Of a DNA stretch of 64,000 bases, positions 15,001-18,000 are shown piece after piece. Each line of letters starts with the position of its first letter. The stretch's first letter is position 1. The DNA is taken from contig CBDASK010000003.1 in assembly GCA_965199495.1 (NCBI GenBank), positions 3,456,001 to 3,520,000 on the forward strand, in the 5' to 3' direction. The stretch is from Abditibacterium sp. (GTDB taxonomy: Bacteria; Armatimonadota; Abditibacteriia; Abditibacteriales; Abditibacteriaceae). Position numbers: made by a program.

Positions 15001-18000
15001 AGCAAAACTCCGACGCTGGTTTCGGCTGGGATTGGGCCGGGTTTGTCGAAGCTGGCGTTGTTACAGCCGAAGACGCCGAGCGCCATAAAAAATTGGCTGT
15101 CGAATACGCCTTATACGAAGACGGCATTCAGGAACAGACGCGCCAAGTCACGCTCGAAGACGGCGGCAACGAGCGCACGTTTTGTTGCGCTTGTCGCTAT
15201 TTTGTGCTGGAAAACATGAAAATTCGCGGCAACACGCAATTCACCGACGCGCAAAATCGCTTCAACACTTTCACGCTGATTAACGGCGCGGCCACGATTA
15301 GCGGCGGCGGCGAAACCGTGTTCGCCAAACGCGGCGAAAGTTTGATTATCCCGGCGAACGTCGAAATCGAAATCGCGCCGAACTCGTTGACCAACGCGGG
15401 CGAAGTCGAAATTTTGCGCTGTTACGTGCCCGATTTGCAACGCGATGTCGTGGATTTCCTGCGCCACTCGAACGTGTCGGACAAAGAAATCGCGTGGCTG
15501 GGTTCGTATGGCGTGGGCAACGATTTGTTGCCTCTGCTCGATTTGCCGCAGGATTTGTTCAACACCGATATGGCGGAGCGTCACGAAGCCGCGCTCGAAC
15601 ACAAAGCCTCGCGCGACGAGACTTCGTAAATTAACCGTAGAGACGCCGATTTATCGCGTCTAAAACCTAAGAGTTGCCACTATAATGAAAGCAGCTTCAA
15701 CGTTTTAGACGCGATAAATCGGCGTCTCTACGGGAGTTGAAAACAATGAACTCCATTCACTTTGCCCTCGCCCTAATGGCAGCCACGGCGCCACTGGTTA
15801 CGCCCGCCGTGGCTGCACCTTCGACCGATACCATCGCCGCCAAAGGCGCGCCGATTGTTGTGACCGCGCTCGTTCACGCCTCGACGCTGCTGCAATACGG
15901 CCCGCTCACGATTTACGTTGATCCGGTCGCTGGCCCAACTTACACACGCAAAGCCGACGCGATTCTCATTACGCATTCGCATCCCGACCATCTCGATTTG
16001 GCGACGATTCGTAAAGTTCTCAAACCCGGCGGCGTTTTGATCGGTTCGCGCGGAACCGCCGATCAATTGGGACAAGTCACGGGCGCCGACCGGCGGATTC
16101 TGGGTTATTATCAGGGCACAAATTTTAGCTACGCAGGGCGTCTGGCCGGTTTCAATCCGGGCCAAGTCAAAGTGCGCGCCGTGCCCGCTTACAACATCGT
16201 GCGCGGACCGAAGCAGGGCCAGAAGTATCATCCGAAATATATTTTCGATGGCTACGTTTTAACGATGGGCGGCAAGCACATTTACTTCGCGGGCGATACC
16301 GAAAACACGCCCGAAATGCGCGATTTAAAGGATATTGACGCCGCGTTTTTGCCGATGAATTTGCCTTACACCATGACGCCCGACGAAGCAGCCACGGCGG
16401 CTAAGGCGTTTCGGCCAAAAGTGGTTTATCCCTATCATTTTCGCTATCCGTTCGATAAGCCAAGCGGCAACGCCGAGAAATTCGCCGCCGATATGAAAGG
16501 TTCGGGGGTTCAAGTCAAGATTTTGGATTGGTATCCGCGCGCCGCCGTCGCGAAGATGATGAATAAAAAATGAGAATTTATTTCTCGTTTTTCAATTCGA
16601 TGACGATGTTGCGATAGAAATTATCGCCGACGTTGACCAGACGATTATGTACGATACCTTCGCCCGCTTCGTGAAAAACGACTAAACCATCGTCGTATTG
16701 CACGGCGCGGTCGTGTTCGGGCTGACCCGGCACAATGTGTTTGAGCGAGCCGCCATCGGTGACGACAAAGAGAAAATCGTCGCGGTGAATATGCTTTTCC
16801 AAGAATTCGCCCGGTTGCAGCGCCAAATCCCACACGCGCACGCGGTCGTTCTCGAAGAGTAGGCGCGTGCCCACGTTTTGGGTGGGAGCGATGTCAGGGT
16901 TTGGCGATTCCATTGGTTGTAAAATTAGCTGCTCCGAGACAATCGTTTGTTCAATTGGCCGGAATGATGAAAGTGAAAAGAAGTCGCAACACGAACGGGG
17001 GAAATGCGAGTGGCCGGTGAACTTTTGGGTTCACCGGCCAACTGGAAAATTGCCTGCGAGAGGACTCGAACCTCCAACATCCTGATCCTAAATCAGACGC
17101 CTCTGCCAATTGGGCCACACAGGCAAACGTTTTGAAAAACGCTTGAAACCGTAGTATAGAAAATTTGTTTGCCCTCGGTTTGGGCGCATCTGCCACACTA
17201 AAAAATATGGAAGCCTCCGAACTTATTCCCGCTTTGCGCCCGTTGCTGCATCCCGGAGCGCGCATTTTATTGATGGGCGCGCCCGCCGAAGAACGGTCGG
17301 GTCTCAAGTGGGGCAAGGCCGTGCGTCCGCTCGCCCGCTTGGGCGAAATCGCGCGCGAATGCGGTTTTGTCGTCGAGGAATCGGTGCAATATACCGACAT
17401 CGCCGGAGAAATTCCCGAAGTCATCGTGTTCGATGGCGCCGCGCTTTTGGCTTCCGCCAGAGAAGACAAAGCGGGCCAAAACGGACATTCGACGCCCTTT
17501 GCGATTGTTGATCTGGATAGCGTGCGCGAACTGCACGCCATGCCGCTACTCAACGAAGTCACCTTTGTCGCGACGATTTCCGAGCGCATGACGAGCCACG
17601 AAACGGCGCAATTGGAAGGCGCGGGCGTGGGCGCGTTTTTGAGCGCCGAGGCTTCAACTGTTGAAGTGGCGAGTTGTCTGCAAAGCGTGACGCAACTCAG
17701 CCGCGCGCGCGCCGAAATCGCCGACTTGCGCGCACAAATCGCGCGTTCGTTGCGCGTTGACGACATCACCGGCGTCATGACACGGCGTTTCTTTTTTCAG
17801 CAAGCCTATCGCGAGTGCGCCCGCGCGCGGCGCTACGGTCATCCGCTTTCGTGTTTGATGGTCGAAGTGGATCATTATCGTATGTTGTGCGCGCGCTTTG
17901 CCGACTCGACGGGCGAAAGCGTTTTGCGCAGTGTCGCCACCGTTATCGGCCAGTGGACGCGCGATTCCGACATTATCGCGCGCTTTGCCGAATCGAAATT

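Follow-up and report, generated by a model that had tools for sequence, protein, structure and literature searches.

Introduction

A long variable arm is treated as class-defining for bacterial tRNA-Leu. The closest described departure is that of Streptomyces coelicolor, where a type I tRNA-Leu(CAA) is apparently essential, its knockout having failed (Fan et al. 2019, PMC6614811), and type I tRNA-Leu as a bacterial housekeeping isoacceptor is already described there. According to the accessible text of that paper, kcat/Km of the type I tRNA is less than half that of type II tRNA, a long-arm body given a short loop reached 14%, the E. coli LeuRS fails to charge the Streptomyces type I tRNA with Leu, and a 38-residue LSD ending in L732-G733 is required for charging of the type I tRNA. 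There, the Streptomyces LeuRS is described as unique among prokaryotic enzymes in charging both types of tRNA-Leu, a capacity credited to the LSD. A cluster of the Mycobacterium mucogenicum clade contains a short-loop Leu(TAG) gene in addition to a long housekeeping copy (Behra et al. 2019, PMC6582537), and 23 of the 26 array tRNAs of Anabaena were charged in vivo (PMC8421152). The accessible text of PMC8421152 and PMC4758250 does not mention arm length, and the supplement of PMC8421152 gave no match either.

Here, we analyze a 64-kb stretch of DNA from a genome of the family Abditibacteriaceae (G000), referred to as the window, that carries a type I tRNA-Leu(UAG). Like the S. coelicolor Leu(CAA), this is one 5-nt-loop isoacceptor among long ones in a genome with one leuS, and it serves a rare Leu codon (PMC6614811). 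It differs from the S. coelicolor tRNA in its UAG anticodon, in the phylum, in being fixed family-wide and in having U48, not C48. The S. coelicolor tRNA is apparently indispensable because its knockout failed, whereas indispensability here would follow from codon meaning and uniqueness; also, ScoLeuRS has the 38-residue LSD in which L732/G733 are needed, whereas the linker here is 13-18 residues long (PMC6614811). The short Leu(TAG) of the mycobacterial array has the same anticodon and a short loop, but it is an extra copy, whereas the short gene here is the sole UAG gene and lies outside arrays in a housekeeping position (PMC6582537). Short Leu genes that share the D arm of the G000 gene are present in arrays of the family and the phylum, comparable to the L-array tRNAs (PMC8421152). 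The same D arm and 5-nt loop are also found in actinobacterial stand-alone Leu(UAG) genes (Pseudonocardiaceae, Nocardioides, Thermobifida, Ilumatobacteraceae); these belong to another phylum, the short isoacceptors number three in Amycolatopsis and Kutzneria, and the LeuRS of these bacteria are LSD-bearing or LSD-less. Canonical type II tRNA-Leu (E. coli, B. subtilis; PMC12360207) shares A73, A14, A15:U48, A20a-G21-A22 and G37 with the gene studied here, which, in contrast, has no long arm and, in its G000 type, has C12-G23 and C13 for G12-C23 and purine 13. Metazoan mitochondrial type I tRNA-Leu resembles it in the short variable loop and in leucine, but is charged by a LeuRS dedicated to it, in a compartment apart (PMC6614811).

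A search of open-access PMC and bioRxiv retrieved no paper on tRNA-Leu of this family, on a short housekeeping Leu(UAG) or on the actinobacterial stand-alone short Leu(UAG) genes; the supplements of PMC6614811 and PMC6582537 (tRNA sequences, LeuRS alignments) may show related cases. As far as this search extends, the recurrence at the CUA reader and the LSD-less LeuRS here, in Nocardioides and in Thermobifida appear to be new in print.

Results

Anatomy of the gene

ARAGORN predicted a sole tRNA in the window, a minus-strand Leu(tag) at 17050-17125, and the Rfam model RF00005 matched 17051-17124 with 56.4 bits over 71 of its 71 positions (Table 1). The body, without an encoded CCA, extends from G1 to A73 and is 74 nt long; the length of 76 nt in the survey's finding includes one flanking base that ARAGORN adds on each side, and the type I form with a short loop, AUGUU, was recovered with both ARAGORN and Rfam. 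The acceptor stem consists of G1-C72, C2-G71, C3-G70, U4-A69, G5-C68, U6.G67 and G7-C66, followed by the discriminator A73. With its cloverleaf, its Leu anticodon and a variable loop of 5 nt, this is a type I tRNA-Leu; the variable arm of more than 10 nt that marks canonical type II tRNA-Leu is absent from all 27 family copies, each of which has 5 nt. The gene stands outside tRNA arrays, alone in the 64-kb window and with no second UAG gene in the genome. A promoter and terminator scan at the gene gave no signal, and MFE folding of the tRNA alone did not recover the cloverleaf (z -1.56) and is uninformative. A 733-aa ORF with a long coiled-coil-like end occupies window positions 18379-20580 (-) and had no Pfam match over the 722 aa scanned.

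Table 1. Positions in the window of the tRNA-Leu(UAG) gene, its parts, its surroundings and leuS
Feature	Position	Strand	Remarks
tRNA-Leu(UAG) gene body, type I	17051..17124	-	74 nt; Rfam RF00005 and ARAGORN
D arm, short-Leu type	17098..17115	-	G10-C25, C11-G24, C12-G23, C13, A14, A15, G18, G19, C20, A20a, G21, A22
Anticodon arm	17081..17097	-	loop U32 U33 U34 A35 G36 G37 A38; anticodon 17088-17090
Variable loop AUGUU, 5 nt	17076..17080	-	last base U48; A15:U48 pair retained
Inverted repeat immediately 3' of the tRNA	17011..17042	.	without T run; not scored as terminator
GGDEF-domain gene, divergent, upstream of the tRNA	17208..18367	+	PF00990, E 3.6e-22
leuS, the genome's only copy, 882 aa	55582..58230	-	LSD reduced to 18 residues, QG to KMSKS; acidic CP1 insert

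Leucine tRNAs and the meaning of CUA

The G000 assembly comprises 4.81 Mb in 3 contigs and is 95% complete. Whole-genome ARAGORN yielded one Leu(tag), and a scan free of the D arm, which used the UAG anticodon loop and both stems, gave two matches: this gene, with 5/5 and 5/5 pairs, and a second with 4/5 and 4/5 pairs that is without a tRNA 5' half. Both searches agree, for an incomplete assembly, with the survey's statement that a single tRNA reads CUA. The housekeeping genes for CAA, CAG, GAG and UAA are long-armed, with 15-nt variable regions, as the survey had held; it had left out two further short-arm Leu genes, UAA and CAA, that belong to a mini-array at C3:1551680-1552003 with the order Gln(UUG)-Asn(GUU)-Leu(UAA)-Leu(CAA). 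Under standard wobble rules, CUA is presumably unread by any of these other tRNA-Leu, four long and two short. It is the rarest of the six Leu codons in this genome, with 2883-3262 occurrences or 2.4-2.5% of Leu codons in crude gene sets and 2207 occurrences in a stricter set; the 3309 codons counted earlier are compatible with the former range, although the exact figure was not reproduced. Divergent tRNA-like genes (odd Trp, Tyr, Ser and Val, a 'Stop' call and interrupted calls), together with a tRNA-Ile(UAU), are scattered over C3:4061305-4061537, 4190137-4190469, 4263025-4321080 and 4621966 of G000; in the relative G003, Ile(UAU) lies 3.3 kb from Leu(UAG).

For the codon test, G000 proteins were aligned to orthologues encoded on stretches of G019, G011, G050 and further genomes of the phylum, and columns in which the partner also has CUA were omitted. 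In total, CUA stands opposite Leu at 161 of 226 aligned sites. The first set contributed 108 of 155 unique sites, compared to 70-79% for the other Leu codons, and the new set (G026 and other family stretches) contributed 53 of 71, with the other Leu codons at 70-83% across sets; for the long-arm outgroups alone, the numbers are small (4/8 and 4/10). CUA sites of the first set are slightly less conserved than those of other Leu codons (68.5% vs 76.8%, p 0.016), and rare codons of other amino acids are likewise less conserved. Judged from these alignments, CUA encodes Leu in this genome.

Distribution in the family and position of the gene

The genomes searched are all incomplete (63-97%). A pattern that permitted any arm length detected a short UAG copy in G000 and in 26 of the 26 other family genomes, and two patterns detected no long-arm UAG copy in these 27. 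The 25 of 26 relatives counted in the survey are thereby corrected upward, whereas its other claims here, no long copy in the relatives and a form fixed across the family, hold. For the remaining housekeeping Leu isoacceptors of the family, every listed match is long-armed. Among the outgroups in which a UAG gene was matched, the two closest, G234 from the same order and G181 from the same class, carry it with a long arm, as had been stated for outgroups; G255 and G280 gave no UAG match with the any-arm-length pattern. The survey had warned of a long copy with a deviant D arm. Without a D-arm constraint, long UAG forms gave 43 matches in the 27 genomes, fewer than the reversed-pattern control; ARAGORN called none of the 5 fetched as tRNA, and the other 38 were judged by eye. 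A long-looking candidate in G003 was rejected as a tRNA-Leu. It is one of six tandem copies of a 45-nt motif (G003:C1:3833650-3834710), spaced by 155-331 bases in tRNA-like units, two of which score as YrlA (Y RNA-like) at 36.3 and 22.5 bits, below gathering; these repeats are possibly a tandem array of bacterial Y RNAs.

In the long-arm genomes G050 and G181, the gene order is Leu(UAG)-Gly(GCC)-tig-clpP, where tig (trigger factor) and clpP were named from their sequences and not by family scan. The same Leu-Gly(GCC)-tig-clpP order is found in the family members G013-G016, G019, G023, G024 and G026 (genera g2-g6). In genus g1, the Gly-tig-clpP block lies elsewhere; the GGDEF gene upstream is common to the loci, being present at 9 of the 14 family loci compared, with D arms of both types. 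Because the order of Leu, Gly(GCC), tig and clpP and the upstream GGDEF gene are shared, the short and the long-arm gene are positional orthologues.

Two types of D arm

We distinguish the A-type, with C12-G23 and C13, from the H-type, in which a short loop is combined with the long-arm D arm (G12-C23, purine 13). The A-type accounts for 20 of the 27 family copies, including that of G000, and the H-type for 7. C12-G23/C13 was found in 97 of 97 stand-alone short copies among the GTDB matches listed, in arrays of other phylum members that carry short Leu genes, and in the unrelated short body of genus g58; the family array copies have C12-G23 in 26/28 and C13 in 28/28. Conversely, all 42 long-arm genes parsed have G12-C23, with A or G in position 13. 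The H-type is also present in 8 scanned array copies among the matches listed; thus, with 7 family copies and at least 8 array copies of this kind, the D-arm switch is not obligatory for a short loop. On the LeuRS tree (27 rows, sequences of <550 aa excluded), H-types occur at three places, which requires 3 changes. Short Leu(UAG) genes of Chryseobacterium tRNA clusters (7 loci) have a long-arm-type D arm as well, like the H-type.

A14, A15, U48, G37, G21, A22 and A73 are shared by 27 of 27 family copies and 23 of 23 long-arm phylum genes. The published triples are U8-A14-A20a, G/A13-G21-A22 and G9-G12-C23 for type II tRNA, and C13-G22-G46 and A9-U12-A23 for tRNA-Phe (PMC12360207). Because type II tRNA and tRNA-Phe differ in this manner, the switch to C12-G23/C13 seems to bring the core closer to the type I form. 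Natural pairs of H-type and A-type genes at one locus make the role of this switch directly testable.

The single LeuRS

In G000, no second LeuRS was found above the cut-off, and type II tRNA-Leu and a single LeuRS coexist with type I tRNA-Leu. The linker between QG and KMSKS has 18 residues in G000 and 13 in most family relatives, and in the family it ends in V-V, V-E, V-L or similar. Thus, an LSD of the ScoLeuRS type, with about 38 residues and a terminal L-G before the KMSKS loop, is absent from the family LeuRS. Elsewhere, this segment has 41-45 residues with four cysteines in G234, G181 and G255, 7 in G280 and roughly 60 in T. thermophilus; among the short-arm lineages, it has 7 in Nocardioides (G405) and Thermobifida (G401), 39 in Amycolatopsis (G402) and about 50 in g58. 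LSD length is therefore uncorrelated with the short arm, because long-arm G280 has 7 residues and short-only g58 has about 50, like its long-arm relatives. For the same reason, we rejected loss of the LSD as the enabling change, the matched Leu genes of G280 being long. The family-fixed C-terminal residues P826, G875 and R876 were rejected as a determinant, given that they include a PGR also present in a solved bacterial LeuRS. In G255, G234, G181 and G119, the LSD is replaced by a CxxC...CxxC zinc-ribbon-like segment. The insert in the CP1 editing domain (LeuRS residues 365-430, window ~56940-57140, minus strand) is strongly acidic here and varies widely in length in the family. At G186:C1:2186751-2189826, leuS matched two separate open frames, of 623 aa and 501 aa, that a gap divides, a possible insertion or split.

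Short UAG genes in other bacteria

A GTDB scan for short Leu(UAG) gave at least 117 loci, at least 103 of them from Actinomycetota; among the matches listed, at least 97 parsed copies had no other tRNA in the flank, for which up to 600 bases per side were fetched (less at 37 loci). The short gene is the only UAG match in Thermobifida fusca, Amycolatopsis, Kutzneria and Nocardioides, and stand-alone short copies are found in Ilumatobacteraceae as well. Three of the five isoacceptors (UAG, UAA, CAA) are short-armed in Amycolatopsis G402 and Kutzneria G404, CAG and GAG being long; the short Leu loci of G402 are at C1:761791, 1461263 and 8954608, and the UAA (bldA-type) gene, short in both genomes, is long in S. 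coelicolor. By hand count, 46 of 51 Pseudonocardiaceae genomes have a short UAG gene (one of them also a long one), 1 has only a long one and 4, G609 among them, gave no Leu match. In an even sample of 141 Actinomycetota, 3 of the 118 with a match are short and 115, including G525, G406, G453, G423 and G493, are long, so the short UAG gene is clade-restricted in this phylum.

Within the host phylum, the Leu-Gly(GCC) locus of genus g58 is occupied in 19 of 24 genomes by another short body, and no long copy was seen in these. Examples of these bodies, with D stem C10-U11-C12 and loop ACAGU, are at G129:C1:960.4 kb, G169:C8:19.4 kb and G224:C19:19.6 kb. UAG matches are short-only in G035 and G036 too. 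The survey had named two further short-only genomes in the phylum, and two were seen here, with g58 in addition; an exceptional status of the family's form was not supported, as an apparently essential type I tRNA-Leu is published in S. coelicolor and short-only UAG recurs in g58, G035, G036 and actinobacterial families. Chryseobacterium was rejected as a further short-only case, its short copies being in clusters and the pattern having missed 41 of 61 genomes. A phage search gave generic tRNA matches only, at 76-86%. CUA makes up no more than 4.5% of Leu codons in each of the 12 short-only samples, but 7 of 11 long-arm samples likewise stay at or below 2.8% (mostly 20-kb samples, from related genomes). 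Low CUA demand thus permits the short form but does not force it, because it is found with long arms as well.

Discussion

We consider it highly likely that this gene is an ordinary housekeeping reader of CUA (and of CUG by wobble) in type I form, charged with Leu by the single LeuRS without variable-arm contact, with a re-tuned core, and tolerated at low demand. Because CUA encodes Leu and there is one leuS, this LeuRS very probably charges the short tRNA. It would do so through elements common with long-arm tRNA-Leu, namely A73, U8-A14, A15:U48, the position of G18G19 and A20a-G21-A22, and would dispense with contact to the variable arm. The lack of an L732/G733-type determinant in this LeuRS counts against such charging. 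The core would be re-tuned to the short loop by the change from G12-C23 and purine 13 to C12-G23 and C13, the type II triples G9-G12-C23 and R13-G21-A22 presumably giving way to type I-like ones. The short form is probably charged less efficiently, and the rarity of CUA, the least used Leu codon, may be what makes it tolerable; this would explain its repeated rise at low-demand isoacceptors.

There may be an even chance that type I tRNA-Leu is a recurring bacterial state, in which the sole CUA reader was taken over independently in several lineages, twice at the Leu-Gly locus of the host phylum, usually with C12-G23/C13 and with charging by an LSD-less LeuRS. Whole families would have to charge a type I tRNA with a LeuRS whose LSD is near-absent, of 39 residues or of about 50. 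If true, there would be a second, LSD-independent recognition of armless tRNA-Leu, a defined minimal RNA change would make the arm dispensable, and mobile arrays would be a possible reservoir that overwrites housekeeping genes. The value of the case lies in a state that recurs without need of a Streptomyces-type LSD; the genetic code is unchanged and no new system is revealed.

Two other readings of the gene itself were weighed. In yeast mitochondria, a tRNA with the UAG anticodon has been reassigned, and CUN codons are read as Thr or Ala. A similar reassignment or ambiguity of CUA, with the short tRNA bearing another amino acid, is suggested by Ala opposite 10 of the 155 CUA sites of the first set (6.5%, whereas the other Leu codons have 1.0-2.2%; Fisher p 3e-4, with 11 residues tested in all). 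This excess was not replicated in the new sites (2/71, p 0.30), and codon reassignment was rejected; Ala is also rare opposite the partners' own CUA (2/100, 1/34 and 3/155), Leu predominates in all sets, and the tRNA is without G3.U70 and has its Leu core elements intact, so we regard this reading as extremely unlikely. It is only slightly less improbable that the short gene represents an accessory copy of the array type, the true long-arm reader being absent from the assemblies or having been missed. The incompleteness of all genomes would allow this, the D-arm pattern is known to have failed in most of the Chryseobacterium-family genomes (41/61), and G050 and G194 of the phylum do have short array copies plus a long gene. 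However, a like pattern detects the other long Leu genes of the same 27 genomes, in which no long UAG gene was seen; the short gene is solitary or next to Gly(GCC), at the housekeeping position; and the lone long-looking match, in G003, is without D and anticodon stems, amid Y-RNA-like repeats.

The housekeeping reader thus remains the preferred reading, and two histories can account for it. Because the outgroups are long-armed at the same locus, the type I form appears to be derived here, which argues against an ancient relic as proposed in the accessible text of PMC6614811. The survey wrote of a lost arm; loss is one of the two histories, since 20 of the 27 copies have an array-type D arm, and tree tests reject neither. 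The long arm may have been deleted in place in the family ancestor, with the 7 H-types retaining the old D arm and C12-G23/C13 arising later, either to compensate or through short conversions from paralogues in arrays. Alternatively, the long-arm gene may have been overwritten at its locus, once or repeatedly, by short Leu genes from mobile arrays or from actinobacteria, the apparent arm loss then being a replacement. We judge the two about equally likely, each slightly short of an even chance. Deletion agrees with the ancestral position of the gene, with the long-arm D arm of the H-types, of which, in the tRNA tree, 3 of the 4 distinct forms fall within long-arm genes, and with the H-type loop UUUCU, which matches the first bases of the long CAA arm in the five genomes that have this loop; it has to accommodate the three changes on the LeuRS tree and an acceptor stem that starts with GC in 26 of 27 family copies, whereas all 23 long-arm genes of the phylum start with GG or AG. 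Replacement is consistent with family arrays that hold short Leu genes of all five anticodons, with A-types interleaved with array genes in the tRNA tree, and with copies of genus g4 that are 0.84-0.89 identical to actinobacterial stand-alone genes. Over 62 positions, with 7 unparsable genes dropped, the best match of the G000 gene is a family array gene (0.81, compared to 0.73 for long-arm phylum genes), but this signal is chiefly in the D arm and fades without it: with the D arm excluded, the best values are 0.78 to family array genes and 0.76 to long-arm genes. Moreover, all housekeeping copies have G37, whereas 25 of 28 family array copies have A37. The trees were built on 49-62 columns, and no grouping is rejected by AU tests (p 0.50-0.79).

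Gln-Asn-Leu(n) arrays like that of G000 are also present in G001, G003 and G012, with varying Leu anticodons, which suggests that anticodon switching may occur among them; the array of G004 is a run of short Leu genes.
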